Origin: Limisphaerales bacterium
GTDB taxonomy: Bacteria; Patescibacteriota; Microgenomatia; UBA1400; PJMF01
NCBI GenBank assembly: GCA_044350895.1
Contig: JBILGT010000001.1
Span: 41,874 to 105,873, forward strand
Direction: 5' to 3'
Length of the DNA: 64,000 nt
Made by a program: the position numbers and the translations under genes. The notes beneath the pieces were generated by a model. That model searched no databases. It was not told where the DNA came from and worked only from the letters and a program-made list of their open reading frames with translations. Shown one piece after another: positions 1 to 39,100 of the stretch (positions are counted from its first letter, which is position 1; every line of letters begins with the position of its first letter).

Positions 1-697
1 CATTGGTATCGACAGTGCGAAACGTAAATTTGGTAGTGTCGTTATTGAGTGGATCAAAATAGAGATCATCAGGATCCGCGCCATCGGCTGGGGTTGAATC
101 CTTTTTAATGGTGTATGAAAACGTCTCGAACAGTTTTAGTTCGTCTTGTTTCTCACTAGTCCCAATCATGACAGTCTGCTCAGGATTGAAACTGAGCTTA
201 ATCTCACCATCTTTTTTAGCTTTGAAGCGGAGTTCTAATACTGTAAAAGGATCGCTAGGAGCAGCTTGTGCTGCATTTTGTCTGGTGGCTACAAATGTAA
301 CTGTGTAACCGTGATCTACTTTATATAACTGAAGTTCTGAAAGCTCTAAGCCTGAAGCTTGGATAAATGTAGGAGCAAGTTCTTCGATAATATCGTTGCT
401 GATGACATCAAATTTGAGTTTAACTTTGGAATAGGGAAGACTGTTAGGATCTAGCTTGATAGAAATTTTACGGCTTGCTGAGCTTTCGATTGTTGCACCT
501 GGTCTAGGCTCAAATACAAGTTCACCAGTTCCATCTGCTACTAAAGCTCTTTTTCTCAAGTCTTGTGGCTCACTGAGCAAAATCTGACTAAATACAATTG
601 CCAGTCCACTAACAACAAGTAGAGTACCTGTGCCTACAAGTAATGACACCTTTGAGTCGGATAGTTTCTTAAAAATGTTTTCAGCGCCAAATAACAT
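1..697 (-). CDS. Membrane-anchored hypothetical protein with a cohesin-like beta-sandwich region; 3' end runs off the window
   Basis: Minus-strand reading frame is open from ATG (CAT at 695-697) to position 1; it is absent from the ORF track because no stop lies in the window. Read by eye, so the frame should be re-verified. N-terminal TM/signal anchor (SLLVGTGTLLVVSGLAIVF). The segment ISIKLDPNSLPYSKVKLKFDV...YTVTFVATRQN...FTVLELRFKAKKDGEIKLSF follows the hydrophobic periodicity of type-I cohesin domains. It sits directly upstream of, and co-directional with, a dockerin-bearing gene. Confidence 0.35.
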   Translation of the reverse strand, partial: MLFGAENIFKKLSDSKVSLLVGTGTLLVVSGLAIVFSQILLSEPQDLRKRALVADGTGELVFEPRPGATIESSASRKISIKLDPNSLPYSKVKLKFDVISNDIIEELAPTFIQASGLELSELQLYKVDHGYTVTFVATRQNAAQAAPSDPFTVLELRFKAKKDGEIKLSFNPEQTVMIGTSEKQDELKLFETFSYTIKKDSTPADGADPDDLYFDPLNNDTTKFTFRTVDTN

Positions 698-760
698 GAT
701 TACTTCATACTATATGAAATTTTTATACTTTTGTAGTAGTCATCCACACAGTTTCGTTTT

Positions 761-2917
761 CTAGATTGATTTACCAAAGTTTTCAATCACTTTATTGTAG
801 TCAAAAAGATCTACTGCACCATTCTGAATGATGTCTGCTGGGATAAAACCAGGGCTACCAGTTCTTCCAAAGTCGCCAATCAAAATATTGTAGTCAAAAA
901 TATCAACATCTCTGTCACCATCTAAATTGCCCAAAAGTACATCTGGAAGCGGAGAGGGGCTTGGTGAAGGTTCCGTTGATGCACTGGGCGTAGGTGTTGG
1001 TGGCGCTGTCACAGTAATGGTCAAGATTGGTGAGTTGTTGTTGGATTCATCCAACTCAGTAATTGTGTTATCAACATCTGTCTGAGCATACACTCTATAC
1101 ATTCCATCAGTAACAAATTTGTCAAAGATTGCAGTAAACTCAACCTCTTGGCCAGCGCTCATTGGCACACCTATTATGAAATCTTTCTTATCTATCACAT
1201 TTGAGCTTGAACCTGCCCCAGACAATGAGATTTTTTCAACTGAGATGACAGTTCTAAACGCTGCCGTCGGACGAGTTCCTATGTTTTTAAGCTTAATTGT
1301 CACGCTGACAGTTCCATTTACTGATATTTCGTTTCTATTCAGTGAAAACGTGTTGATAGTTACATCTGGTTTACCTTCTGGTGTAGGTGAAGGGGAGGGA
1401 GTTGGAGTAGCAATATCTGGCTTTATCCAACTTCTATATCCATTGTCGTCACCATCGAATATCCAGCCATTACCAATAAAGCTTACTGAACTGCGGGGAG
1501 TAGTGTAGGGAACAATACTGTCAGGCCCAATTTTCCAGCGTTTCCAATCACTACCAGTTGAAAAATTATACGTACATCGAGAATCAACGCAGGTGGGGTT
1601 AAGATATCGAATGTAGGAATTTCCAGATACTGTTTCAATGGCTATTTTTAGTTGGTGATAGCTGGGTGGGGCAGGAACCATTTCGATACTAATCGCACCA
1701 TTTGCGCCAGCTGTAATCTTGAAATTTGTAGGCTCTGACACAAATAAACCTCCGCCTTCTCGGAGAAGTCCATCAAGGTCATAAATCGCATCCCACCAGT
1801 TGCGAAGTTTTCTTCCTGCAAACACATGAGGATTCTCAGCACCAGGAATGTTTTGAAACCACCAGATTTTATATTCTCTACCACCATCAATTGGGCAACT
1901 TCCACCAGTCCAAGTTGAACAACTGATATTTGTTTTGGTGCCAGTTCGTTGAGGATTCCAGTCAAGGCAATCTGAACTTACGGCTTCAGTTCGATACCAG
2001 CCGTATTCCTCAACTCCATTTGGTGGTGTGTGAATCCAACCACAACCAGGATTAATAACTTTGTGTGATATATCACTGCCGACGAACTTCCCCCAAAATA
2101 ATAACTCAGGCCATTTTTCGGCAGGGAGCATATCTCTTCCATCCAGCCAGTTCATCACAGCTTCCATATGATGCCCATGATCCTCAAGTGCTTCACCAAC
2201 ACCGCGGGTGTAGTTGTAGTTAGAAAGAATATACGTATGTTCGCACTGGGGAAGATCATCAGTCCGCTCACTATTACTAATGTCACCATAGGTTCCGTGA
2301 GTAAAGAAATCTTTGGATAATCTTCCCATCGACATGTTTGATTCAACTGGTTCAATTTCCCCATGATGGTAGCCCCAGACCCAGACTTGCTTAACACCTT
2401 GGTTATCAACCAAATTACAGATATTAATGTCATCGAGCATTTTGCGATAGTTGGGGCGATAGGTGTGATGTTCTTGATTTAATATGACGTCTGATCGAGG
2501 TATTGGCGCAATGTATTCATAGGTATTGCCATGTTGAATGTAGTGCAGTGATGGCTGGCGCATGGGTTGGTTGTATCCTTGCCACTTGGTGCTCATAGTG
2601 AGATCGGTCAAGATTTGAGCAGTAAAATCATTTACCCGATTGCGGAGTTGCTCAATTGTTTGTCCCTCTAGAGATGGTCCAGCAATATTGTGATCAACAT
2701 AGCCGGGTCGACTGGCAAGTTCGGGAAAGTATTGGATAACAATGACTGGCAAATCTCGATACATCTCAGGTTGTGTACTTGCAAATCTACGAGTATCTTG
2801 CGATTCTCCAAGATAGGTGCGAGAAAAATACACACTAAAAGCACCGATAAGTATCAAAAAAATGAGTCCAACTATTGAACTGATGTAAACTGCTTTTCTT
2901 GATGAGAAAAAAGACAT
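761..2917 (-). CDS. Large secreted or membrane-anchored protein with a CARDB-like middle domain, Pro/Thr/Ser linkers and a C-terminal type-I dockerin; catalytic part unidentified
   Basis: N-terminal TM (IVGLIFLILIGAFSVYF). PTPSPSPTPEG and PTPTPSASTEPSPSPSP linkers. The C-terminus GNLDGDRDVDIFDYNILIGDFG ... ADIIQNGAVDLFDYNKVIENFG is a duplicated Ca-binding dockerin segment (D-x-D-x-D...D-x-x-x-L-I-x-x-F-G). Confidence 0.55.
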   Translation of the reverse strand: MSFFSSRKAVYISSIVGLIFLILIGAFSVYFSRTYLGESQDTRRFASTQPEMYRDLPVIVIQYFPELASRPGYVDHNIAGPSLEGQTIEQLRNRVNDFTAQILTDLTMSTKWQGYNQPMRQPSLHYIQHGNTYEYIAPIPRSDVILNQEHHTYRPNYRKMLDDINICNLVDNQGVKQVWVWGYHHGEIEPVESNMSMGRLSKDFFTHGTYGDISNSERTDDLPQCEHTYILSNYNYTRGVGEALEDHGHHMEAVMNWLDGRDMLPAEKWPELLFWGKFVGSDISHKVINPGCGWIHTPPNGVEEYGWYRTEAVSSDCLDWNPQRTGTKTNISCSTWTGGSCPIDGGREYKIWWFQNIPGAENPHVFAGRKLRNWWDAIYDLDGLLREGGGLFVSEPTNFKITAGANGAISIEMVPAPPSYHQLKIAIETVSGNSYIRYLNPTCVDSRCTYNFSTGSDWKRWKIGPDSIVPYTTPRSSVSFIGNGWIFDGDDNGYRSWIKPDIATPTPSPSPTPEGKPDVTINTFSLNRNEISVNGTVSVTIKLKNIGTRPTAAFRTVISVEKISLSGAGSSSNVIDKKDFIIGVPMSAGQEVEFTAIFDKFVTDGMYRVYAQTDVDNTITELDESNNNSPILTITVTAPPTPTPSASTEPSPSPSPLPDVLLGNLDGDRDVDIFDYNILIGDFGRTGSPGFIPADIIQNGAVDLFDYNKVIENFGKSI

Positions 2918-3087: not shown

Positions 3088-3978
3088 ATGACTAGTGAGA
3101 AAAAAGTCCGCAAAGCGATTATCACTGATGCGGGATTCGCAAGTCGATATTTACCTATTACAAAAACAGTTCCTAAAGCAATGCTTCCATTAGGAAATAA
3201 GCCAATTATGCAGCTCGTCGTTGAAGAGTGTGCAGAAGCCGGAATTGAGGAAATTATTATTGTGGCTACTCCAGAAGGTAAGCCAATTTACGAAGATTAC
3301 TTCCACAATAGTGTCATTCGTATTAAGAAACAACTTGAGTCACAAGGCAAATTAGATCGATATGAGCCAGTTCAAGAAGTTTTAGATTTTCCAAAAATCG
3401 TAGTCATTACGCAAGATCCAAGTCTTCCATATGGTAATGGATCCCCAGTTGCTTCAGCAATGAAGTTTGTAGAAGGTGAAGAGGCATTCTTAGTGCTCTA
3501 CAGTGACGACATTGTTTTCGGTAATCCAGGCGATGCAAAGGCAATGGTTGAGCTGTATGAACAGCATCCTGAATCTGCTGCCATCATCATGGCTCAAGAA
3601 GTCAGCCCAGATGTAGTTGATAAATATGGAATTATCAGTTTCAAAGCTGGTTCCGAGACAGAACTCGATAATATTATCGAGAAACCAGACAAGGGAACAG
3701 CTCCATCAAACTTAGCTTCCTATGGTCGCTACTTACTCAAGCCATCTGTATTTGAATTTTTAAATCCTTCAAATACTGGTAAAGATAGTGAGCTGTGGAC
3801 AGTTGACGCTATTACACAAATTGCAAAAAGTAAGCCAGTGCTTGTTGAAAAAACCAAAGGTTTTTGGATGACAACTGGTGATCCAGAAAACTATTTCCGT
3901 GCACATCTGAAGTTTGTGATGGAGTATGAGAAGTATGCAGGAAAACTTGCTGCATGGGTCCAAGAGTTCACAAAGTAA
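3088..3978 (+). CDS. galU: UTP--glucose-1-phosphate uridylyltransferase
   Basis: LPITKTVPKAMLPLGNKPIMQLVVEEC, GTAPSNLASYGRYLL and TGDPENYFRAHLKFVMEY match GalU motifs. The Gly-rich loop is divergent (GFASRY instead of GLGTRF). Confidence 0.8.
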   Translation: MTSEKKVRKAIITDAGFASRYLPITKTVPKAMLPLGNKPIMQLVVEECAEAGIEEIIIVATPEGKPIYEDYFHNSVIRIKKQLESQGKLDRYEPVQEVLDFPKIVVITQDPSLPYGNGSPVASAMKFVEGEEAFLVLYSDDIVFGNPGDAKAMVELYEQHPESAAIIMAQEVSPDVVDKYGIISFKAGSETELDNIIEKPDKGTAPSNLASYGRYLLKPSVFEFLNPSNTGKDSELWTVDAITQIAKSKPVLVEKTKGFWMTTGDPENYFRAHLKFVMEYEKYAGKLAAWVQEFTK

Positions 3979-4249: not shown

Positions 4250-4321
4250 GCCCAGATAGTTCAGTGGCAGAACGCTTTCTTGGTAAGAAAGAGGTCGCGA
4301 GTCCGATTCTCGCTCTGGGCT
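4250..4321 (+). tRNA. tRNA-Thr (anticodon GGT)
   Basis: Cloverleaf: acceptor GCCCAGA/TCTGGGC, D-arm GTTC-AGTGGCA-GAAC, anticodon stem CTTTC/GAAAG with loop TTGGTAA, T-arm GCGAG-TCCGATT-CTCGC. CCA is not encoded. Confidence 0.8.
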
Positions 4322-4390
4322 CACCTAAAAAACAAGTTCGTAATTAAAATCTACCAGGATCTCACTTTTCTTGATACAATACATCTTCAT

Positions 4391-4473
4391 GCCAGGTTAC
4401 CCAAGTGGCCAACGGGGGCAGACTGTAAATCTGCTGGCGTACGCCTTCGTAGGTTCGAATCCTTCACCTGGCA
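4391..4473 (+). tRNA. tRNA-Tyr (anticodon GTA), long variable arm
   Basis: GCCAGGT...GCAGACTGTAAATCTGC...GTAGGTTCGAATCCTTC ACCTGGC A. Closely resembles canonical bacterial tRNA-Tyr, including the long extra arm. Confidence 0.9.
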
Positions 4474-4538
4474 CAGAACATTGCACTATTGGTTTATGCA
4501 GTGTACTGTACGACATATTGCTATAATAAAAACCAAAT

Positions 4539-4610
4539 GCCGGGATAGCTCAGCGGTAGAGCACCTGTTTTGTAAACAGGGGGTCCAGGGTTCGAATCCC
4601 TGTCTCGGCT
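4539..4610 (+). tRNA. tRNA-Thr (anticodon TGT)
   Basis: Acceptor GCCGGGA/TCTCGGC, D-arm GCTC-AGCGGTA-GAGC, anticodon stem CCTGT/ACAGG with loop TTTGTAA, T-arm CAGGG-TTCGAAT-CCCTG. Confidence 0.85.
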
Positions 4611-6070: not shown

Positions 6071-7393
6071 CTATTCTGCCGAGAAAGCTCTGTAGGCTTT
6101 AATAATGTTCTTAGTGCCATTCAGGTACAGCTTATCGATTTGAGCTGCGGCATTCATGGCTTGTTCTACCCAAGACTGTGACTTGTGCTGTGCGCTCATC
6201 AAGACTTCCAGTTGCGCAACGATGTTTTCAGAGGCTGCTTTACGGCTGATTCCCTTTTGTTCAAAGATCTTTCTAATATTCTGTTCCCATTCGCCCCACT
6301 CGGAGAGGGTGAGGAGGAAAGAACCCGAAGCTGCCGCGTCATATGCCATATCGCCAGAAGGCTTAGTCATGAATCCATGTGCCCATGGAAAGGCAAATTT
6401 TACCAAATACTCATTGGCATCAACGATTTGAGGATGATAGATGAGGCGTAACTTGGCGGTGTGATCTGAAATTTTCTCAATGGGAACTCTATGCTCAGCA
6501 GCTAGTTCCCGCACCATATCAGCAATGTCCTTATGAGTGGCTGCATAGACGATGATTTGGAATGGACTGGGGCGTTTGCGAAGTTGTGGGAGGAGTTGAG
6601 TGAGAATCTGTCTAATTTCTCCCTTGTTAGTGCCTAGACCGCCAGTGGTAATACAGAGCCGGAGTGGGCCAGAGCGCCATGCATATTTTTTGCTGCGACT
6701 CGCAATGATGCGTGGATCTATAGGAGGGCCAGTCACTATGACACGTTCAGGATCTGCAGTTTTTCCAAGGAGTGCAGCCTTTTCTAGAAATTCCAATTTA
6801 GTATCTTCGTCAAAAACTCCAAAGCGTATCTGCTTTTTTTCAGCGTTGGTAACATACTCATCTCGGACATGCGGATCTGTGATCATTTGGAAGACTTTTT
6901 TACCTTGCATCGATAAAATATTGCCCGCAGCAATATGGAATGAAAGGATGGGTTGTTGAATTTTCTGCGTGAGGTAGGTGAGTGGCGGTGTGATGCTTCC
7001 TAGAATAGGCAACTTCTTTCTCCCAAATGTATCTACAAAGTCTTTAAGTAACTTAAGTAATGGGTGGCGAGCAATTTCTTTGCCAATCTCTTCGGTGAGA
7101 GAAACTGAGAACCAATCTTTGTAGGAAACGTAGTTGGTGGGATCTACAACCCAGGCTTTTTTGGAATCTAACGTATTTCCCCAGGCTTGCACCGCAACAC
7201 CCAGCGCCATTGAGTAGTGGGCGCGAGAGAAGACAGTATCACGGGATGTGTTGTTGTCTGGTAAACCATGCAAGCGCTTTAAATCCTCCCTAAAGGTGGC
7301 TGAAACAGTGAGAATGGGTATCTCTGTCGTTTCCAAAATTTGCTTGTCTTTTTCGAGGGTCTTTACAAGGGCAAGGTCAAAAAGTTCTGGCAT
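6071..7393 (-). CDS. GT-B glycosyltransferase of the MGDG synthase/UgtP (GT28) family, likely diacylglycerol glycosyltransferase
   Basis: ITTGGLGTNKG (MurG/UgtP Gly-rich loop). MTKPSGDMAYDAAASG resembles UgtP ITKPGGITxxEA. Confidence 0.55.
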   Translation of the reverse strand: MPELFDLALVKTLEKDKQILETTEIPILTVSATFREDLKRLHGLPDNNTSRDTVFSRAHYSMALGVAVQAWGNTLDSKKAWVVDPTNYVSYKDWFSVSLTEEIGKEIARHPLLKLLKDFVDTFGRKKLPILGSITPPLTYLTQKIQQPILSFHIAAGNILSMQGKKVFQMITDPHVRDEYVTNAEKKQIRFGVFDEDTKLEFLEKAALLGKTADPERVIVTGPPIDPRIIASRSKKYAWRSGPLRLCITTGGLGTNKGEIRQILTQLLPQLRKRPSPFQIIVYAATHKDIADMVRELAAEHRVPIEKISDHTAKLRLIYHPQIVDANEYLVKFAFPWAHGFMTKPSGDMAYDAAASGSFLLTLSEWGEWEQNIRKIFEQKGISRKAASENIVAQLEVLMSAQHKSQSWVEQAMNAAAQIDKLYLNGTKNIIKAYRAFSAE

Positions 7394-7439
7394 ACACTCA
7401 GCATACAGTCAACGTTATACCCACGTAAAGGAGCGGCAG

Positions 7440-7760
7440 CTATTGTCTAGGCTCATCAGCTTGTGCAGGAGTTTCTTCAAATCCGTGTCCGCGAGTTGGC
7501 GCAGTCATGCGGTATGCTTGATAGTCTGGAGCATTCGCAGTCACATCACCTTTTGATTGTGGCTCGCTGAGTCCGTGTCCACGAGTAGGTGCAGTCACGC
7601 GTTCTGTGGGAAGACCAGCCTCTTGAAGAGCTGCAAGAATGTCTCCGATTGTAAGGTTATCTCCGAATGCTTCTAATGCCTTAAGGAAATTTGATTTATC
7701 GATCACTGGTGCATCATCTGCAGTTTGTTTGATAGGCTCTACTTGAGGTATTTCTGACAT
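7440..7760 (-). CDS. Hypothetical protein with tandem TAPTRGHG repeats
   Basis: Likely start is MSEIPQ (CAT at 7758-7760), preceded by an AAAGGA RBS. The ORF track extends to 7859. C-terminal duplication: RVTAPTRGHGLSEP / RMTAPTRGHGFEET. Confidence 0.45.
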   Translation of the reverse strand: MSEIPQVEPIKQTADDAPVIDKSNFLKALEAFGDNLTIGDILAALQEAGLPTERVTAPTRGHGLSEPQSKGDVTANAPDYQAYRMTAPTRGHGFEETPAQADEPRQ

Positions 7761-7897
7761 GCATATTCCTTTAATGTATAAGTAATACTTTTCACTATAT
7801 TTCTTTACATTTCCCATGTCTACAAGTAAATCTTCAATTTGCCAGGCAGCGTTAGTCACTCTATAATACGTCAGCTCATATTAAGCTCAAAGAACGT

Positions 7898-7968
7898 AGG
7901 GCCGTAGTTCAACGGTAGAATAGAGGTCTCCAAAACCTTTGACGAAGGTTCGATTCCTTCCGGCCCTG
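7898..7968 (+). tRNA. tRNA-Trp (anticodon CCA)
   Basis: AGGGCCG TA GTTC AACGGTA GAAT A GAGGT CTCCAAA ACCTT TGACG GAAGG TTCGATT CCTTC CGGCCCT G. Strongly resembles bacterial tRNA-Trp. Confidence 0.9.
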
Positions 7969-8007
7969 CAAAGTATTTATCCAGATCAAGTTTAGATTGG
8001 TAAATGT

Positions 8008-8565
8008 ATGATTGAAATTTTTAACAATCAGTGGATAGTAGGATTGGGTGTAACTGTAATAGGTGGACTTGTCTTATATTATGTATTTGGTATCGGAAAA
8101 AAAGAAGAACCATCAAAAGTTTCTAAAAAGTCCCTAGATAAAAAAGTAGCACGCATTCATAATTCTGTATTGACGGCCGGTGGAGATATTCTTGTCGCCT
8201 CTAGTGTTTATAAGAATGATGATGTAAAGAAAAAAAAGAGAATTAAAATTATTGATCCTGAAACAATAGTTGAGAATATTCGTAAAAGCAAACCTTTTTT
8301 GGTCGATCAAGTCACTGAGTCATATAAAGGAATCAGAGTAAAGTGGAAGCTAAAGTTTTTATACATTAAGAATATTTCAGAAGATATGTGGAGAATTACT
8401 GCAAATTCGAATAAAGGTTTCGAAATGATAATGTTCAAAATAAATTTAGATGAACATCCGGAATTTAAAAGTATGGATAAAGGAGAAGAATTTCAGGTAG
8501 AAGGAGTAATTAAGGAAATAGATTATATAAAAATTATCCACCTTGATGATTGCGAAGTGTTTTGA
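8008..8565 (+). CDS. Hypothetical membrane-anchored protein in an AT-rich islet
   Basis: N-terminal TM (WIVGLGVTVIGGLVLYYVFGI). About 28-30% GC versus about 45-55% in flanking genes. Confidence 0.4.
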   Translation: MIEIFNNQWIVGLGVTVIGGLVLYYVFGIGKKEEPSKVSKKSLDKKVARIHNSVLTAGGDILVASSVYKNDDVKKKKRIKIIDPETIVENIRKSKPFLVDQVTESYKGIRVKWKLKFLYIKNISEDMWRITANSNKGFEMIMFKINLDEHPEFKSMDKGEEFQVEGVIKEIDYIKIIHLDDCEVF

Positions 8566-8629
8566 GTTAAATAGGTTTCGATTGCCTCTGACAGTCACAT
8601 TTCTTAGATAAATTTGGTATCATGCAGAC

Positions 8630-8968
8630 ATGATACTGAGCAAAACAGAACCATATTCTTCTGAAGAAATAACAGAACTTGCAGTGCAGTTTGAAGTCTA
8701 TATTAAAACTGTAATAGATATCCAAAAGAGAATTTGCATTGCTGGAATGGATCGTCATTTTGAAGGTGAACAGATTTTGTTATCCAAGGGTTCTAAGCAA
8801 AGTGATTTATGGGGTGGTGGTATAGATTTAGTGACTAAAGAAATTGATTTCAATTCTTTTATAAACATTCGCCCTCGAGATAATAACACCAAAAACGAGA
8901 TTCAAAGCGAAGAAATTAAAAAGATATATTTAGAACTATCTCAGTATTTTTTTAAGGAGTTAGTATGA
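8630..8968 (+). CDS. Hypothetical protein in the AT-rich islet
   Basis: 112-aa ORF. Its stop overlaps the next start (ATGA). No confident family assignment. Confidence 0.35.
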   Translation: MILSKTEPYSSEEITELAVQFEVYIKTVIDIQKRICIAGMDRHFEGEQILLSKGSKQSDLWGGGIDLVTKEIDFNSFINIRPRDNNTKNEIQSEEIKKIYLELSQYFFKELV

Positions 8969-9240
8969 CAGATGCAAAAATGTTAGTAGGCTCACTCTCA
9001 AATGACTTATTTCGAGTTGCAAGTTTATCTCAACGTGGATCAAAAAAAGCTGCAAGTCGTTTCTTGACTGAGGCACAGCGTTGGTCAAAAGATCTAGAAA
9101 ATCTTGAACTAGCCAGTTACATCACCAAGCTGGCTGCCGATATTTCTAGTCGTGATGCATCAGATACATCGCTGGCTTCTGCTGAGCGGTACCTTATGTA
9201 CGGAGTTCTGTTGCAAAACTATGCTCTGCACAGTAAATAG
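8965..9240 (+). CDS. Hypothetical helical protein with weak resemblance to the four-helix-bundle (23S rRNA IVS / Avd-like, PF05635) family
   Basis: RGSKKAASRFLTEAQRWSKDLENLELAS resembles the AEGxxRxSKKEFxxFLxIARGSLxELETxLxLA consensus. The match is weak. Confidence 0.3.
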   Translation: MTDAKMLVGSLSNDLFRVASLSQRGSKKAASRFLTEAQRWSKDLENLELASYITKLAADISSRDASDTSLASAERYLMYGVLLQNYALHSK

Positions 9241-9250
9241 GTTGCAACAT

Positions 9251-9271
9251 CCTTCACAAAGCCCTGCAAAA
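9251..9271 (+). repeat. Partial direct repeat of the tRNA-Trp 3' end (TCCTTC...GCCCTGCAAA); candidate attachment-site scar bounding the AT-rich islet
   Basis: The 10-mer GCCCTGCAAA and the upstream TCCTTC occur both at the tRNA-Trp 3' end (7955-7972) and at 9251-9270, exactly at the downstream edge of the low-GC segment. Confidence 0.3.
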
Positions 9272-9274
9272 TTC

Positions 9275-9808
9275 CTAAAACGGATACCCCTTTAATCCTT
9301 GAATGCCTTTGAGCACCGCAACTTCACCCATAATAGAGTAGGCATGACCACTGATCATGTTGGCAATAAAGTCATACACTTTACGTGTTCCCATGCCGAA
9401 TGCACTCATATCAACATCTTTTTCCAAGTCTTCATCAGTCAATGTCGCAACATATGCTTCACTTGCTTCCTGAACTGCCTTGGAATATTCACGGAATTGA
9501 GCCATATCCACTTGTACTGATCTCAGCCACTTGGGATATGCACTTTCCCACTCAGTAGGTTGGAGCTCACTGGCACCGGTTTTGTCTTTGAACGTAGTTT
9601 CAAATAACGGTTGAGTTTTTTTTAGAAAACCGTGAACAAAAAAATCTTCTGAAAATATGAGGTGTGCGTAGGTTCCCGCAATTGGATTTGCTGTCCCGGG
9701 TGGCTTAAAGGCTGCCACTGCATCAGTCACGCCATCCATTGTTTGGTCAAGTGCGGAGTGAGTTGCTTTCAGTTGCGTCAAGAGGGTTTGGGTGGCGAGA
9801 TTGTTCAT
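9275..9808 (-). CDS. DinB/YfiT-like (DinB_2 superfamily) metal-dependent protein
   Basis: Four-helix DinB-like pattern. The HLIFSEDFF motif resembles DinB_2 HxxxxEDFW. Confidence 0.5.
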   Translation of the reverse strand: MNNLATQTLLTQLKATHSALDQTMDGVTDAVAAFKPPGTANPIAGTYAHLIFSEDFFVHGFLKKTQPLFETTFKDKTGASELQPTEWESAYPKWLRSVQVDMAQFREYSKAVQEASEAYVATLTDEDLEKDVDMSAFGMGTRKVYDFIANMISGHAYSIMGEVAVLKGIQGLKGYPF

Positions 9809-10060
9809 ATCCGATCATTATACAAAATTTTTGCGCTGTTTTAATCTACCAACTCTGGGTAGAATCTCTCCACTACAAAATGAAATGCTTCTCCAAATTT
9901 TTCAGGATGGTCGCGTAGTTCAATTCTCAGTTCTGTCATTGAGAATTTTTTGTATGTTACGGATTCATGATTAAGCTGGGGTTCAGCATCAGAATAGATT
10001 TCAAATAGTAAAAAAAAGTGATTTTCTTTTCTGCCAATTACGGTACGATTTAAAATAGCT

Positions 10061-10616
10061 TTGCCAAAGAATTTGTGCTCAAAATCAGTAATGCCAGTTT
10101 CTTCTACAATGCAAGATATGAGAAGAAATGTTGCATTAGGAATTTTTGGAGTTGCTGTTGTAGGTCTAGCAATTGGTTACCTAATTGTTAGTGGAAATGA
10201 TCGCTCAGAAACTCAGGTCGCAGTTCTACAAGTGCAAAGTACTCCACCCACGGATTTATAAAACTGGTGCCACACAAAAAGGGCAGACAGAACTGTATGA
10301 TGGCGTATTACTTGTTTTTGAAGTAGTGGATTTACAAGGAAGTACTTTAGAGAAATGGCTGGATACGCATATTCAAGAATCTACTGCCGATGGCACACTC
10401 CAAGTGACACAACCTAAAAAAGCAGTGACTCTTAATGGTCAGCCTGGGTTTGTGTATTCCACTCGCGGTCTGGGTGAGTCAACCAACTATATTATTCAAA
10501 AAAATGCCCAATCTCCTCAAGCTCTCAGTATCACTATGCTTGTAGCAGATCCTGAAAACATTGATTTTCAAGCAGAAGTTGCTGCTATTCTTGCAAATAT
10601 TTCACTCCTCAAATAG
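10061..10616 (+). pseudogene. Membrane-anchored protein interrupted by a +1 frameshift in a C-rich tract (around 10244-10253); pseudogene, sequencing error or recoding
   Basis: ORF A (10061-10261) encodes a TM anchor and an STPPTDL linker, then stops. ORF B (TTG at 10185 to 10616) continues in the +1 frame with a 140-aa soluble domain. A single-base indel in ACTCCACCCACGG would join them (...VLQVQSTPP-RIYKTGATQ...). Confidence 0.4.
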
Positions 10617-10659
10617 AACGAAATTATTTGGTGTATGAGTATTAGTATATAATACCCCG

Positions 10660-11094
10660 ATGACAGAAAGCTTGAATTATCAACCTACTGCTGCTGATTT
10701 AGAAAATTTGCATGAAAGAGGTATCACTTTAGAAGAAGTATTGAGCTGTGATTGGCCCACTCCAGAAGAATTAGATGTATTTACACAATTTGGTGGAACG
10801 CTCATTGACGCAATACTTTTGACCAGTGTAAAAGCTAATATTTTAGATGCATTAGGACAAATGGTACCGATTCGATATCAGCTTGTTGAAATTCCTCTTA
10901 CCACTGAAATGCTCTCCGAAAGACAAACTAACTTTATTTATTTACTACTCCGTTACACGTCAGGAAATCCTTATTTTCCAAGCGGGTTTACACGAGCAGA
11001 TGCTGAACACATTTTACAAATCGTACAAAATACTCCGTGGACACCTGAAAATTTTAATGAACAGTACGACTTGATTGCGTCACTAGTGCAGTAG
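10660..11094 (+). CDS. Hypothetical protein
   Basis: 144-aa ORF with no recognisable motif. Confidence 0.4.
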   Translation: MTESLNYQPTAADLENLHERGITLEEVLSCDWPTPEELDVFTQFGGTLIDAILLTSVKANILDALGQMVPIRYQLVEIPLTTEMLSERQTNFIYLLLRYTSGNPYFPSGFTRADAEHILQIVQNTPWTPENFNEQYDLIASLVQ

Positions 11095-14981: not shown

Positions 14982-15830
14982 TTAGATAAAATATTTCAGC
15001 AGTGAAGGAGCTTCAGCGTATGGTGAACCTTTAATCAAAGGTGCATCGTGCAGTTCAGCTATGTGATCGGTGTAGGTGGGTTTTTCAACTTGGTAAATTA
15101 CACCGATTGGAAATTTTTCCTGCATGGGTTCTTGAGCTAGATGCAGTGCTGCTTGGAAGTCTGCTGGGTTGTGGTCTTTGAGTTGATAGGTTTTCTGGAA
15201 GTAGTAGCCATAGGTATTTACTTTATTAAACGTGACACACGGTTGCAGTACATTGATGACTGACAAACCGCGGTGCTGCATACCTGCTGTAATAATTTGT
15301 GAGAGCTGTGGAAGATTGCCCGCAAATGCCTGGGCAACAAAAGTAGCTCCTTGTGTTATTGCGAGTAACAACGCATAGACAGGACTTTCGATAATGCCAT
15401 CTGGCGTTGTTTTTGATTTAAAGCCTTGATGTGCAGCAGGGGAAGATTGACCTTTGGTCAGGCCATATACTCCGTTGTCATGAATAATCATAGTAATGTC
15501 ATGATTACCGCGACAGGCGTGTAGAAAATGATTACCACCTTCACCATACAGCGCACCATCACCGCCAATGACAACGACAGGCATTTCGTGATTGGCAATT
15601 TTACAACCGACTGCATTGGCGAGTGAACGTCCATGCAGTGTATGCATAGAACTTGCATTCAAAAAGTCATTCATGTTGCCCGAACAGCCAATATCAAACA
15701 TCACATTTACAGTGGATGGATCGTGTCCTTGTTCAGAAAAAGAGTTCATGATGGCACGACCAATACTCCAGTTGCCACAACCAGGACACCAAGTGGGAGT
15801 GTAGCCAGAAAAGTCTTGAACTGTTGCCAT
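14982..15830 (-). CDS. korB: 2-oxoacid:ferredoxin oxidoreductase, beta (TPP-binding) subunit
   Basis: TPTWCPGCGN and a TPP-binding GDG...N region. Confidence 0.8.
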   Translation of the reverse strand: MATVQDFSGYTPTWCPGCGNWSIGRAIMNSFSEQGHDPSTVNVMFDIGCSGNMNDFLNASSMHTLHGRSLANAVGCKIANHEMPVVVIGGDGALYGEGGNHFLHACRGNHDITMIIHDNGVYGLTKGQSSPAAHQGFKSKTTPDGIIESPVYALLLAITQGATFVAQAFAGNLPQLSQIITAGMQHRGLSVINVLQPCVTFNKVNTYGYYFQKTYQLKDHNPADFQAALHLAQEPMQEKFPIGVIYQVEKPTYTDHIAELHDAPLIKGSPYAEAPSLLKYFI

Positions 15831-15836
15831 AATTTC

Positions 15837-17654
15837 CTATTGTTGATTACTAATTGTATGTACTGCCTCAACGACTTCTTCAGTGAAAATTGGTCGGCCG
15901 TCATACTTCAAAAGTTTGTGTGGTGTGTCAAAACCAGTGGCCATTTTCAGTAAAAGTCCAAACTGACCAGTCGCATTATTTTCGATTTGAATATAGGGCT
16001 TATCATACTCAAAAAGTGATTTGATAGCTTCTGTATGCAGTGGATAGACGTGCGTAAAATGAATGTACGCAACTTGTTTACCTTGATTGCCGAGTTGTTC
16101 CATTGCATCAAGAATGGCACCTTTATTGCCGCCCCATGAAAAGAGAATTGTTTGAGCTCCACCGAGGTCACCATAGACTGTGGGCGCTGAAAAATGATTA
16201 CTGAAATAAGTTTCGATCTTTCGGGAACGCTTATCCACTTGGTCTTTGCGCACAACTGCATCTTCAGTGGTGTGAGAATCGGGTAGATGCTCATATGAGT
16301 TGGCTTGGTACCAGACACCTTTTTGACCGGGGATAAGACGTGGTGAAATGCCATCATCAGTAACCGCATAGCGATGATATGGCAACTCAGTTGCTTCACT
16401 AATTGTCTTCCCGCGATTAATAGGTTGCTGCATGATAGTTTCCAACTTAGCGAGTGGAATACTATAGTGGGATTCAGAAAGCACTTTGTCAGAGAGCACA
16501 ATGACTGGGGTTTGATAAATATCAGCAAGGTCGAATGCTTTCATGGTGAGATCGAGCATTTCTTCAGGATCTCCTGGGGCTAAGACAATTTTAGGGAATT
16601 CGCCGTGACCAGCAAAAGCGGCAAAGAGGAGATCACCTTGCTCAGTCCATGTTGGCATACCTGTCGCGGGTCCTGGGCGTTGAGCTACAAACACAACGAG
16701 TGGTTGTTCAGCAATTCCAGCGTAGGAAAGTGTTTCTGCCATCAAGGCAAAACCACCACCAGAAGAACCTGTCGCAGCGCGAACGCCGGCAAATGATGCG
16801 CCTAATGTTTCGTTGACCACACCAATTTCATCTTCTGCATGTCGGACCACCATACCAGTTTTGTGTTGCCATCCTGCGAGAATTTCTAAAACAGATGAAG
16901 ACGGTGACATTGGGTAGGCTGCGTAAAATCGGCAATCTGCAGCAACAGCTCCAAGTGCAAATGAATCATTACCTGCGATCACCGTGCGAGCTTCAGGGTT
17001 TTCAATGTAGGTGAGGATAGGCGTTACGTACTCACTAAAGTGTTCTTTCACATACTCAAAGCCAGTGCGAGCACAAGTAATATTAAGCGTAACAACATCG
17101 TCGCCTTTTTTCTTGAATTGGTCAGTAATCATGCCGTTGAGAATATCTTCTTTGCCATCGAGAAGGGCATAGCTGGCACCCAAACTAATCATGTTGACCA
17201 TGATTTTGTCAGCTTTCAAGCCTGCCAGTAGTTCTTGAAATGGTACACCGATGCGTTTGGCATCAGTGACAGGTTCAAATTGGCCAGGGTCATAGAGTAG
17301 TAAACTTTCAGGAGTAAGTCGTGAGCTATGGAGCGTGAATGTTTCTTCATTAAAACAAACCAAACAATCAATCACAAATTTAATCATGCGGACAGGGTCT
17401 TTACTGATATTGACCTCATAGGTGTTGTGACCACCTTTAATCAAAGAAGGATATTCGCCGTAATCAAAGATGTGATAGCCAGAGCGAGTAGCAAGTTTAC
17501 TGAGTGACAAGCCAGTGGTCATCACGCCCAATCCAGCTGGAGCACCAATTTTCCATAAAAAATGTCGTGGTTGTTGTGTCATTGTTGTATGTGGGTGCAC
17601 CGAATCACCCAAGAAATACTTTATGAGAGTGTTTTTGCTAATTGCGCTGCCCAT
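15837..17654 (-). CDS. korA: 2-oxoacid:ferredoxin oxidoreductase, fused gamma-alpha subunit (two-subunit OFOR type)
   Basis: N-terminal gamma-like domain (IGAPAGLGVMTTG) followed by an alpha domain (GNDSFALGAVAADCRFYAAYPMSPSS). The true start is likely the internal Met at 17582, which removes the overlap with the flavodoxin gene. Confidence 0.8.
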   Translation of the reverse strand: MGSAISKNTLIKYFLGDSVHPHTTMTQQPRHFLWKIGAPAGLGVMTTGLSLSKLATRSGYHIFDYGEYPSLIKGGHNTYEVNISKDPVRMIKFVIDCLVCFNEETFTLHSSRLTPESLLLYDPGQFEPVTDAKRIGVPFQELLAGLKADKIMVNMISLGASYALLDGKEDILNGMITDQFKKKGDDVVTLNITCARTGFEYVKEHFSEYVTPILTYIENPEARTVIAGNDSFALGAVAADCRFYAAYPMSPSSSVLEILAGWQHKTGMVVRHAEDEIGVVNETLGASFAGVRAATGSSGGGFALMAETLSYAGIAEQPLVVFVAQRPGPATGMPTWTEQGDLLFAAFAGHGEFPKIVLAPGDPEEMLDLTMKAFDLADIYQTPVIVLSDKVLSESHYSIPLAKLETIMQQPINRGKTISEATELPYHRYAVTDDGISPRLIPGQKGVWYQANSYEHLPDSHTTEDAVVRKDQVDKRSRKIETYFSNHFSAPTVYGDLGGAQTILFSWGGNKGAILDAMEQLGNQGKQVAYIHFTHVYPLHTEAIKSLFEYDKPYIQIENNATGQFGLLLKMATGFDTPHKLLKYDGRPIFTEEVVEAVHTISNQQ

Positions 17655-36414: not shown

Positions 36415-38604
36415 GTGAAACAATTTTTTATTTGGCTAATTCTTCAGATTTTTTTCTGTTTTTATGCTGCTTCTCCGGTTGCAGCTCGATCAGAACTGTA
36501 TCCTGTCACCCCCTTTGCCCAAGTCGACGGAGAAGTAACGGGGACTGTAGATGGGCAGGCGGTGCAGTTTGAATATCACCGAACATATCATCCAGATATA
36601 GTTGGTGTGAATATGCAAACGAGCAGAGTACGTTTTGCAAGTGATGGTCCAGTTGCAATGCAGTTGAATTTTGCTACACCGATCTCAGGGCCCTATCTTC
36701 AAGGAATTGGGAGGGGATATCCACTCCAGCAAAATGGAAACCAACTTACCTTTACTCTACCTGGACCAGGACATTACTACTTTAAAGCCGGAGGACTGCA
36801 AAAAACTATTTTATTTTGGATTGATGATTTAAATGCACCAAGAACAAAGCCAGGTGACCCTAATGTCGTAGACGTCACTACTCGCGGGATTCGCAATGAT
36901 CCAAGCGCAAACCAAAAAAATGAACTCCAAGCACTAATTACTGCAGTGCCAGATGGCACCATTTTATATTTCCCGGCAGGTGTATATCGGACGGGAGGGT
37001 TGAAAATATCAAGAAAAAATTTGACACTTTTCTTTGATCGCGGCGCACTGCTAAAAGGGACTGATAACAGTGCCGATTTTTTCAAGGGACTCATTGAAAT
37101 TGAGTATGGGCGTAACATTAAGTTGACAGGGTTTGGTACGATTGATGCCAATGGTATGGTCACATATTCCAACAGTGGCGGCAGAGAAATTAAGATAAGA
37201 AACATCCAAATAGATGACTCAACTGACATTACTCTTGAAAACTTACTATTTATGGACGCAAACTCTTGGTCAATTCACGTTCATCGTAGTACCAACTTTA
37301 CTGCAAGAAATATTAAAGTTTTTGGTGGAAAAGATGGTATTGATCCTGATTCAGTGACAAATGCTCTTTTGGAAAATGTGTTTGTTCAATCAGTTGATGA
37401 CAGTATTGCTGTTAAAAGTCGTGACGTCAGTGATAACACTCCTACAAATAACGTTCGGGTAAATAAGTGTATTGTTAGTAGTGGTCGAGCTACTGCACTC
37501 AAAATTGGTACAGAAAATCGACAGCCAATTACTGGTGTAACATTTGAACACTGCGATGTGATTGATTCCGATCGGGGGATGAGTATTTACACGCAGTACG
37601 GTGGACAAATTGCAGATGTTACATACAAAAACATTCGCTTAACAGGCGTAACTGATCCATGGAAAAACATACCGTACAGTGGTGGCGGACCGAGCATAAC
37701 CAATCTTGTCTATGAAAATATCATTGTGGGATTATCAACAAATAAAGCACGGATAAATCAAGGATATCCTGGTTTAAAAAAAGTAATGCTAAAGAATATT
37801 GTAATTCACACATTTGGTGCACCTGAGGAACGAGCTGGGGCATTGCGTGCAGATGCTGGTACAAATGTAAATGCATTTGGAGTTACTGCATATTGGAACG
37901 GTAAAAAAGGTGGCTGGCGTGGTGTCTTTGAAGGGGATGGATTTGTAGAAAAAATGAATGTCGTAGAAAACGACGGAGCTGGTCCTTCAATGGAGTTCTC
38001 AGACGCAGCAGGATTACCGCCTGCCACAGTACCAGTACCGCCAGCTGAACCAACTCCTGCATGTAAAATACAAACTCAAGTGACGTGTTCAAGCAGTACT
38101 TCAGTAAGTGTGAAGTATCAATTTACCCAACAGCCAAATTTTGACTATAAGCATTTTATAGTACGCATTAATGCATATCCTGAAAATAAAGCTGAATGTA
38201 CCAATGACTCTGGACAGCAGATCGATTGGTTTTGTGGTAGGGACACAGGAAAAGGTAATGATCTACAAGCATATAGTGAAAAAGTGGTGCAGGAGACAAC
38301 TTTTACGGCTGTACCGGGTGTTCCTTATAGAGTGGGTGTTTCAATTGATGCAAAAGCAGATGGGACACGTCTCTCTACCGGGCAATGTGCTGCAATACCG
38401 GTTGATATAACGTGTACAGCAGCTGTTACTCCAACTCAGTCAAGGAAGCCAGGTGATCTTGATCGAGACAATGACGTTGATATTTTTGACTACAACAAAT
38501 TGATCGAAAATTTTGGACGAGAAAATTGTGAGATCAATTTGACCGCTAGTTGTTTGATTGATATATATGACTACTCGATTGTTTTAGCCAAGTGGGGTAC
38601 ATAA
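36415..38604 (+). CDS. Secreted right-handed beta-helix (pectin-lyase-fold/GH28-like) protein with a C-terminal dockerin
   Basis: Signal peptide. Repeated beta-helix rungs (NIQIDDSTDITLENLLFMDANSWSIHVHRSTNFTARNIKVFGG...). C-terminus GDLDRDNDVDIFDYNKLIENFG plus a degenerate second dockerin segment. Confidence 0.55.
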   Translation: MKQFFIWLILQIFFCFYAASPVAARSELYPVTPFAQVDGEVTGTVDGQAVQFEYHRTYHPDIVGVNMQTSRVRFASDGPVAMQLNFATPISGPYLQGIGRGYPLQQNGNQLTFTLPGPGHYYFKAGGLQKTILFWIDDLNAPRTKPGDPNVVDVTTRGIRNDPSANQKNELQALITAVPDGTILYFPAGVYRTGGLKISRKNLTLFFDRGALLKGTDNSADFFKGLIEIEYGRNIKLTGFGTIDANGMVTYSNSGGREIKIRNIQIDDSTDITLENLLFMDANSWSIHVHRSTNFTARNIKVFGGKDGIDPDSVTNALLENVFVQSVDDSIAVKSRDVSDNTPTNNVRVNKCIVSSGRATALKIGTENRQPITGVTFEHCDVIDSDRGMSIYTQYGGQIADVTYKNIRLTGVTDPWKNIPYSGGGPSITNLVYENIIVGLSTNKARINQGYPGLKKVMLKNIVIHTFGAPEERAGALRADAGTNVNAFGVTAYWNGKKGGWRGVFEGDGFVEKMNVVENDGAGPSMEFSDAAGLPPATVPVPPAEPTPACKIQTQVTCSSSTSVSVKYQFTQQPNFDYKHFIVRINAYPENKAECTNDSGQQIDWFCGRDTGKGNDLQAYSEKVVQETTFTAVPGVPYRVGVSIDAKADGTRLSTGQCAAIPVDITCTAAVTPTQSRKPGDLDRDNDVDIFDYNKLIENFGRENCEINLTASCLIDIYDYSIVLAKWGT

Positions 38605-38641: not shown

Positions 38642-39100
38642 ATGTCAGATGCACAATCTCGCCACGTTGATATCGATAATGCCCGTCTAGATGAGCAACG
38701 TCAAGTGATGCAAGAAATCATTGATGCAGATCATTGTCCGTTTTGTCGTGAAAATTTGGACAAATACCACAAGCAAGAAATTCTTAAAGAAGGTGAGTTT
38801 TGGCTGGTCACGAAAAACCAGTGGCCGTACGACTTCACAAAAGTCCACTTACTGCTGATTTATAAACAACATGCCACAGATCTTTCTGAGCTTGATCCAG
38901 AATCTGGCAAAGAATTGTTAGAACTTCTCCAGTGGGCACAAAAGGAATACAAAATTCCTGGTGGTGGTTGGGCAATGCGCTTTGGTGATACCGATCATTC
39001 GGCAGGAACAGTGGCACACATTCATGTGCAGTTCATCATGCCTGATCTTGAACATCCAGAGTTCAAACCAGTGCGGATTAAGATTGGGAAAAGTAAGTAA
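38642..39100 (+). CDS. HIT-family (histidine triad) nucleotide hydrolase/transferase-like protein
   Basis: VAHIHVQFI (HxHxHxx) near the C-terminus. N-terminal CPFC. Confidence 0.55.
   Translation: MSDAQSRHVDIDNARLDEQRQVMQEIIDADHCPFCRENLDKYHKQEILKEGEFWLVTKNQWPYDFTKVHLLLIYKQHATDLSELDPESGKELLELLQWAQKEYKIPGGGWAMRFGDTDHSAGTVAHIHVQFIMPDLEHPEFKPVRIKIGKSK

Follow-up and report, generated by a model that had tools for sequence, protein, structure and literature searches.

The 64,000-nt window analyzed here (assembly GCA_044350895.1, contig JBILGT010000001.1, positions 41,874–105,873 of the forward strand) comes from a genome deposited as Limisphaerales bacterium and placed by GTDB in the Microgenomatia of the Patescibacteriota, and it opens with two adjacent genes that form a candidate cohesin-dockerin pair. 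The first encodes a 718-aa protein (hereafter, the cargo protein), which a preliminary description of the window, made from the sequence alone, had called exactly as we did (761–2917). The second is a partial open reading frame (ORF) with a Met start at position 697, which leaves the window at position 1. The preliminary description was right that this ORF adjoins the cargo gene and is co-directional with it, but had placed it upstream; given both ORFs lie on the minus strand, with the partial one running from 697 to 1, it is located downstream of the cargo gene (Table 1). The two genes are separated by 63 nt, and no terminator-like hairpin was found when sought in this gap, making their co-transcription plausible.

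The cargo protein is composed of an N-terminal transmembrane helix or signal peptide, an enzyme-like domain of ~360 aa (the cargo domain), a beta-rich spacer, a CARDB domain, a PT linker, and a C-terminal dockerin, and an identical protein (P0001) is found on three public contigs. The CARDB domain (37.2 bits against a cut-off of 22.7 bits) was the only Pfam match in this protein. The partial ORF corresponds to the N-terminal part of a membrane protein carrying a module with a predicted cohesin fold (hereafter, the cohesin-like protein).

Table 1. Features of the candidate cohesin-dockerin locus and of the second dockerin-bearing gene in the window.
Feature	Position (nt)	Strand	Basis
Partial ORF, first 232 codons of a 746-aa bitopic membrane protein (cohesin-like protein)	1..697	-	remainder beyond window edge
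Cohesin-fold module (predicted), residues ~54-201	95..538	-	AF2 model md0ec6ff12149, Foldseek
Post-transmembrane motif PQDLRKRAL, residues 44-52, cohesin-like protein	542..568	-	family alignment
N-terminal hydrophobic helix, residues ~17-38, cohesin-like protein	584..649	-	sequence
718-aa cargo protein gene	761..2917	-	ORF; identical to P0001
Divergent dockerin, two F-hand repeats, residues 661-718	764..937	-	hhalign, independent HMM, PDB-profile matches
CARDB (Ig-like) domain, residues 516-628	1034..1372	-	Pfam PF07705, E 3.6e-9
Cargo domain, residues ~50-405	1703..2770	-	184 homologs, all spanning the region
Post-transmembrane motif SQDTRRFAS, residues 39-47, cargo protein	2777..2803	-	motif common to cohesin-like protein
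N-terminal hydrophobic helix, residues ~9-31 (signal peptide or signal anchor), cargo protein	2825..2893	-	sequence
galU-like UTP-glucose-1-phosphate uridylyltransferase, divergent	3088..3978	+	NCBIfam TIGR01099, E 1.1e-58
729-aa secreted GH28 polygalacturonase-like protein	36415..38604	+	Pfam GH28, E 3.9e-19
Dockerin module of the GH28 protein, residues 676-729	38440..38601	+	Pfam-verified-dockerin HMM, motif scan

The dockerin and cohesin-like modules

Both segments that the preliminary description had quoted as dockerin repeats, GNLDGDRDVDIFDYNILIGDFG and ADIIQNGAVDLFDYNKVIENFG, occur verbatim within the last ~58 residues of the cargo protein, and a six-frame motif scan of the window located dockerin-type segments in only this protein and the 729-aa GH28 protein. 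We aligned six "DIFDYN"-type modules (those of both window proteins, P0002, P0003, P0004, and P0063) with ten Pfam-annotated reference dockerins, drawn from homologs of the same cargo family, using hhalign, which scored the pair of profiles at 99.4% (E 3e-21, 56 columns). A hidden Markov model (HMM) built from Pfam-verified dockerins only, which is non-circular in that no window sequence was used in training, matched the cargo protein with an E-value of 1.1e-8 and the GH28 protein with 5.7e-10 (35.8 bits). When compared with the PDB, the six-sequence profile matched the solved dockerins 2y3n_B (E 1.1e-4) and 5lxv_B (E 1.3e-4) over their full length, as well as the dockerin-bearing chain 2jnk_A of Clostridium perfringens (E 0.007). 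Matches of this profile to pentatricopeptide repeats were rejected as repeat-summed artefacts, with no single stretch being significant alone. The first repeat in the cargo protein (N-L-D-G-D-R-D-V-D-I-F-D) retains Asp/Asn at loop positions 1, 3, 5, 9, and 12. Judged by these comparisons, the C-terminal dockerin homology of both proteins is real and far beyond chance, with the modules best described as divergent dockerins that possibly present a single functional face.

The GH28 protein had been noted in the preliminary description as a second secreted, dockerin-bearing beta-helix protein, and both a GH28 domain (Pfam Glyco_hydro_28, 69.4 bits against a cut-off of 22.9 bits) and a C-terminal dockerin-like tail were indeed found. 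Its order is that of a signal peptide, the GH28 beta-helix, a Cys-containing spacer, and the dockerin, comprising one full and one degenerate repeat. NCBIfam models for a PglB-like polygalacturonase (E 2.5e-29) and a rhamnogalacturonidase also matched this protein, both below their equivalog cut-offs.

Extending past the window edge, a check proposed in the preliminary description, recovered the complete cohesin-like gene (746 aa) from one of the public contigs that encode P0001 (L001:2952-5192; JGI sample 3300042340). Its product begins with a transmembrane helix directly followed by a module of ~160 aa (residues ~42–201), an Ig-like domain with weak resemblance to CARDB (residues 234–332, E 0.009), three knot-like six-Cys repeats (CNxxCxSNxxC…RCRL), a PST linker, and a second transmembrane helix, after which come RRK and a Pro/Gln-rich cytoplasmic tail ending in SMADRLKQKG. 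The partial ORF had been described as transmembrane-anchored and beta-rich, of which the N-terminal helix and the beta region stand; the helix within the window is the N-terminal signal or anchor segment, and the role of permanent anchor likely falls to the second helix beyond the window edge, as seen in L001. No SLH (S-layer homology) repeats or LPXTG sortase signal were matched in the 746-aa protein by Pfam or NCBIfam, nor any carbohydrate-binding module (CBM) by Pfam, and it carries one cohesin-fold module only. According to our local HMM, the partial ORF is also the sole cohesin-like ORF in the window.

An exhaustive search of 1.84 billion representative sequences returned 43 homologs of the module-bearing protein (E 7e-119 to 8e-4), of which three repeat proteins were set aside, leaving a family of 40. 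In all of these, the module lies at residues ~40–210, straight after the N-terminal transmembrane helix, and the overall architecture is the same, with the family alignment conserving both transmembrane helices, the module, the three Cys repeats, the PST linker, and the cytoplasmic tail, including its C-terminal SM(A)DRLKQKG motif. A word-indexed homology search using either the partial ORF or the 40-sequence domain alignment gave no match, which we attribute to a limit of the index and not to absence, given the exhaustive search found these homologs. The module contains family-wide invariant residues (alignment A2), indicative of purifying selection.

The structure of the module was predicted using AlphaFold2 (AF2) with the 40-sequence domain alignment (A2), yielding an all-beta model with a predicted local distance difference test (pLDDT) score of 90.5 and a predicted template modeling (pTM) score of 0.84, while a single-sequence model (pLDDT 36.6) was discarded. 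A Foldseek comparison of this model against 350,542 PDB chains produced a top 50 composed entirely of cohesins, spanning types I, II, and III and non-cellulosomal members (E 1.5e-7 to 1.5e-4, probability 1.00, TM-scores of 0.45–0.69). The best match was CohA2 of Clostridium acetobutylicum (6kg8, E 1.5e-7), and the remainder included OlpC (4dh2), OlpA (3ul4), and CipA (1ohz, 2ccl, 1aoh, 1anu), the Ruminococcus flavefaciens proteins ScaB, ScaC, ScaE, and CohG, the C. perfringens cohesins (2jh2, 2vo8), and the non-cellulosomal cohesin of Archaeoglobus fulgidus (2xdh). The predicted fold is thus a flattened beta jelly-roll that can be superposed on those of solved cohesins. The resemblance to a cohesin, raised earlier on the basis of beta-strand periodicity, is therefore borne out in the predicted fold but not in any profile match (detailed below), and because no cohesin sequence profile matched, the assignment rests on predicted structure and synteny, not on sequence.

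Gene order in related genomes

Using the seven closest full-length family members as queries against one genome per GTDB species, we collected 28 loci and searched their ORFs with local HMMs for the cohesin-like module and for the dockerin (trained on Pfam-verified sequences only, with E < 1e-4 taken as a clear dockerin). Where record titles were informative, they named Patescibacteria, Woesebacteria, Pacebacteria, or Paceibacterota. Some records (L004, L005, L006, L008, and others) instead bear the title "Methylococcaceae bacterium" or "uncultured Pseudomonadales bacterium", which probably reflects placeholder naming or mis-binning of contigs, and it is conceivable that the contig of an epibiont was binned together with that of its host.

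A recurrent order was observed across these Patescibacteria loci, consisting of galU, a dockerin-bearing gene of variable content, the transmembrane cohesin-like gene, and secE-nusG-rplK-rplA. The cohesin-like gene is present in 26 of the 28 loci and is followed directly on its 3′ side by secE-nusG(-rplK-rplA) in 22 of these 26, as is also the case for the 746-aa gene, which precedes secE, nusG, and rplK (L001:5261-7165). The divergent galU-like gene, found upstream in 23 loci, constitutes the conserved left border, as it does in the window.

The same-strand ORF immediately upstream of the cohesin-like gene ends in a clear dockerin in 13 of the 23 loci that include upstream sequence (L004, L005, L007, L011, L013, L014, L015, L016, L017, L018, L019, L022, and L024), with weak single-repeat matches in five more (L012 and L027-L030). 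Several of these dockerins are recognizable to Pfam Dockerin_1, which scored above its gathering threshold (22.9 bits) in the adjacent partners of L011, L013, L018, L022, and L024 and in two further genes of L016. The cargo carried by the adjacent partners is pectate-lyase-like in L004 and L005, a PKD domain in L019, and otherwise consists of unassigned domains, while dockerin-tagged peptidases are encoded nearby in L007 (M64-like), L016 (papain C1), and L025 (M11-like). The cargo domain of the window was found in none of the 28 loci. What persists across the loci is the slot with its dockerin, whereas the cargo domain changes from one to the next.

Orthologs of the window's cargo protein do occupy the same position in two additional loci, L031 (P0003, 57% identity) and L032 (P0005, 41% identity), where they lie upstream of cohesin-like genes of 813 and 879 aa, respectively (cohesin-like HMM, E ~1e-53), followed by secE. 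In L031, the cargo ortholog and the cohesin-like gene are separated by a 137-aa ORF (L031:3497-3910) that comprises no more than a dockerin (E 1e-11) preceded by a transmembrane helix, SQDIR, and a PT linker. In L017, three cohesin-like genes are consecutive (L017:5453-10987), the middle of which (343 aa) combines a cohesin-like module with a C-terminal dockerin that scores just below the Pfam cut-off (22.6 bits). By its domain content, this ORF is arranged like an adaptor or adaptor scaffoldin, a combination typical of cohesin-dockerin assemblies. A further expansion was seen in L023, with three tandem cohesin-like paralogs before secE (6765-10792) and two more a few kb downstream (15612-17443), and no dockerin gene was detectable in this locus.

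The two window proteins also share a motif, [S/P]-Q-[D/E]-x-R-x-x-A, positioned just after the N-terminal hydrophobic helix, and they are the only ORFs in the 64-kb window to combine a transmembrane helix with QDxRxxA. The motif is nearly universal in the cohesin-like family, with its Arg and Ala invariant or nearly so, and occurs in many, though not all, of the upstream dockerin partners, the others having ordinary AxA signal peptides. Noted in the window and in loci L003-L031, this motif is possibly a signal for sorting or processing that is specific to the lineage.

Proposed surface display and its alternatives

Because the pair is found next to secE-nusG in numerous related genomes, its most likely role is to present secreted proteins at the cell surface, and we consider it quite probable that the two genes encode a monovalent, transmembrane-anchored cohesin-dockerin pair with this role, in which binding is predicted; physical binding, its Ca dependence, the membrane topology, and signal cleavage are all features that we infer. 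The downstream product would be a bitopic, type-I-like membrane protein bearing a single distal cohesin on a long stalk, with the Ig spacer, Cys repeats, and PST stalk setting the cohesin at a considerable distance from the membrane. The upstream product would be exported as an enzyme-like protein, and its C-terminal dockerin would bind the cohesin in a Ca2+-dependent manner, such that the cargo stays on the cell surface and does not diffuse away. The same single cohesin would also serve dockerin proteins whose genes lie elsewhere, among them the pectinase-like GH28 enzyme. Such an arrangement would presumably help a host-dependent cell to keep adhesins, or enzymes that degrade polysaccharides or proteins, at its surface. 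The small tethering system of a membrane cohesin-like protein and dockerin-tagged secreted proteins, as envisaged in the preliminary description, is in this respect supported by the module fold and the conserved gene order. A broader version, which we put forward tentatively as a distinct possibility, is that of a clade-wide Patescibacteria display cassette beside secE-nusG, pairing a divergent, transmembrane-anchored cohesin with a fast-evolving dockerin cargo slot, and with adaptors or tandem paralogs in some members. In such a cassette, the cargo slot conserves only the C-terminal dockerin and, often, the SQDxR post-transmembrane motif.

A number of observations weigh against a cohesin-dockerin pair. 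Pfam Cohesin (PF00963) matched neither the window fragment, the full-length protein, nor any of the 40 family members, an outcome that had been named in advance as counting against a cohesin; likewise, the family profile retrieved no cohesin from the PDB, and hhalign of the family against three type-I cohesins of Clostridium thermocellum reached only 0.1%. A phmmer search of the PDB with the partial ORF gave nothing meaningful. Even the predicted fold agrees with cohesins at moderate TM-scores (~0.6) and 7–13% identity. As for the dockerins, describing that of the cargo protein as a textbook type-I module was an overstatement, since Pfam Dockerin_1 (PF00404), the profile proposed for checking it, gave no match at E ≤ 10 for the cargo protein, the GH28 protein, or even the isolated 60-residue module, and orthologs fell under the cut-off as well (P0002, E 0.096; P0005, E 0.0038). 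The second repeat of the cargo protein (D-I-I-Q-N-G-A-V-D-L-F-D) has Ile at ligand position 3 of a degenerate Ca loop, and that of the GH28 protein (…SCLIDIYDY…) is without a Ca loop, leaving one intact loop. Additionally, no dockerin was found in the adjacent upstream ORF in five of the 23 loci (L003, L008, L009, L023, and L026). Finally, if the N-terminal helix of the cargo protein is uncleaved, the cargo would be self-anchored and its tethering redundant.

The missing cohesin sequence signal and the loci without an adjacent dockerin gene would both suit a module that is a beta-sandwich adhesin or carbohydrate-binding tip, recognizing a host or substrate ligand and not dockerins. The dockerins would then bind a cell-wall polymer, other partners, or only Ca2+, and the adjacency of the genes would reflect shared export or regulation near secE. 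Two reports on ultrasmall bacteria also fit this view: non-cellulosomal dockerins have been discussed as possible adhesins in the Omnitrophota (PMC10066038), and the cultivated Saccharibacterium Southlakia epibionticum has an essential envelope protein with a dockerin domain, for which no cohesin partner was identified or reported (PMC10633639). However, the top 50 structural neighbors of the module are cohesins only, with no CBMs and no generic Ig or jelly-roll domains among them, dockerin ORFs cluster strongly at the position just before the cohesin-like gene, and L017 encodes an adaptor with both modules in one ORF; we thus regard an adhesin tip as unlikely.

Proximity to secE raises another explanation, in which the membrane protein is a secretion factor (a holdase or receptor) tied to secE and dedicated to SQDxR-type N-terminal signals, with the dockerins being incidental. 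The location of the gene directly before secE-nusG in 22 of 26 loci, the combination of a transmembrane helix and QDxRxxA in both window proteins, and the conserved cytoplasmic tail motif would all fit, yet many upstream dockerin partners have AxA signal peptides without the motif, the extracellular stalk, Cys knots, and distal module suit display over translocation, and proximity to secE is weak functional evidence, leaving this account very improbable. We give even less credence to the absence of any functional system, whereby the dockerin-like tails are decayed remnants and their adjacency to the cohesin-like gene is a lineage accident. While the sub-threshold Pfam scores of the window dockerins and the degeneracy of their second repeats could be read in this manner, the arrangement is kept across many species-level genomes despite cargo turnover, the first repeat keeps all its Ca ligand positions, and the invariant residues of the module speak to purifying selection.

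Cellulosomes are built on a scaffoldin with several cohesins and a CBM3, onto which dockerin-tagged cellulases assemble. The surface-display pair proposed here shares the modular logic of a cohesin fold and a dockerin with these complexes, and the adaptor of L017, lying beside further cohesin genes, adds to the likeness. However, a cellulosome-type complex, as suggested in the preliminary description, is unsupported, and a true cellulosome was rejected on architecture and cargo, given there is a single cohesin with a transmembrane anchor, no CBM3, and no cellulases seen, with the dockerin-borne cargo instead being an unassigned domain, GH28, pectate-lyase-like, PKD, or peptidase. By analogy, the functionally closest systems appear to be OlpA and OlpC, the monovalent cell-surface anchors of C. 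thermocellum, in which a single cohesin binds enzyme-borne dockerins and SLH repeats attach the protein to the cell wall. Both likewise carry one cohesin on a surface anchoring protein and are among the top structural matches (3ul4, 4dh2), but here the SLH repeats are replaced by a transmembrane helix and a Cys-knot/PST stalk, the host belongs to the Candidate Phyla Radiation (CPR), the dockerin proteins seen are not cellulases, and the module has no detectable sequence-profile similarity to C. thermocellum cohesins.

Cohesin and dockerin modules also join secreted or surface proteins outside cellulosomes, and Peer et al. reportedly surveyed such non-cellulosomal cases in 2009. Examples are the A. 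fulgidus cohesin (2xdh) and the cohesins of C. perfringens toxin complexes (2jh2, 2vo8, 2ozn). Of these, 2xdh, 2jh2, and 2vo8 are among the structural matches of the module, and C. perfringens 2jnk (also 2ozn) was matched by the dockerin profile. The Patescibacteria pair differs in being a conserved two-gene cassette beside secE-nusG with a variable cargo slot, in having a cohesin too divergent for Pfam, and in that both partners can bear the lineage-specific SQDxR motif.

To our knowledge, little is understood of the ways in which CPR/Patescibacteria bind to hosts or polymers and draw nutrients from them, and a conserved membrane cohesin with exchangeable dockerin cargo offers a concrete, testable mechanism of surface display in these organisms. 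The presence of cohesin and dockerin annotations in Microgenomates is already known, with expressed proteins so annotated in Candidatus Shapirobacterales having been read by the authors as a cellulosome (10.1101/2021.08.21.457207). Within the literature searched, this report and that on Southlakia give domain annotations and do not describe the adjacent genes, the transmembrane anchoring, the link of the locus to secE, or a cargo slot of changing content, and our incomplete search of the literature found no description of the secE-linked cassette, the transmembrane/Cys-knot/stalk architecture, a Pfam-invisible cohesin family, or the variable cargo slot. If true, the clade-wide cassette would provide the cohesin so far lacking for the dockerin proteins that had been noted in CPR bacteria, and would represent a general way for host-dependent, genome-reduced cells to arm their surface with exchangeable hydrolases or adhesins. 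Since annotation with standard profiles overlooks the whole of this cohesin family and, in part, its dockerins, the use of cohesins and dockerins outside cellulolytic Firmicutes is probably under-counted.

The cargo domain and neighboring genes

The ~360-aa cargo domain had no match in Pfam (39 members searched), NCBIfam, or a profile comparison with the PDB, with matches to cytochrome c3 and antibodies (E > 0.05) rejected as short chance matches. It is nonetheless represented by 184 homologs (E ≤ 1e-3), those with named sources deriving from Woesebacteria, Daviesbacteria, Aenigmarchaeota, Planctomycetota, Ignavibacteriales, and Acidimicrobiia. Among its invariant columns are Glu, Ser, Asp, His, and Cys (e.g., VESNM, EDHGH.xE, and CGW.H.PPN), a set that fits a putative enzyme. 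According to the local HMM, 36 of the 120 listed homologs end in a dockerin, while others bear Big, FN3, cadherin, F5/8-C, type IX secretion system (T9SS) sorting domain, or prepilin N-terminus modules, or are fused to GH116. The cargo domain is a widespread extracellular module, often dockerin-tagged, in CPR bacteria, DPANN archaea, Planctomycetota, and others. Being widespread, frequently dockerin-tagged, and equipped with an invariant residue constellation, it merits structural and enzymatic study.

Two homologs of the cargo domain, P0024 (residues ~560–700) and P0046 (residues 500–625), each have an internal region resembling a classical cohesin (for P0046, Pfam Cohesin gave E 0.2), together with a Pfam-verified dockerin in the same polypeptide. 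These regions showed no detectable relation to the cohesin-fold family of the window.

Directly 3′ of the GH28-dockerin gene lies a gene for a HIT-family protein (38642-39100, plus strand), followed by one for a 1583-aa protein (39153-43904, plus strand) in which an N-terminal M48 peptidase domain (Pfam, E 2.8e-15) is the sole recognized part, the other ~1400 residues carrying no annotation. Four tRNA genes are located at 4250-4610 and 7898-7968 on the plus strand, three of them clustered just past galU, and spurious ORFs in the ORF list overlap these tRNA genes.

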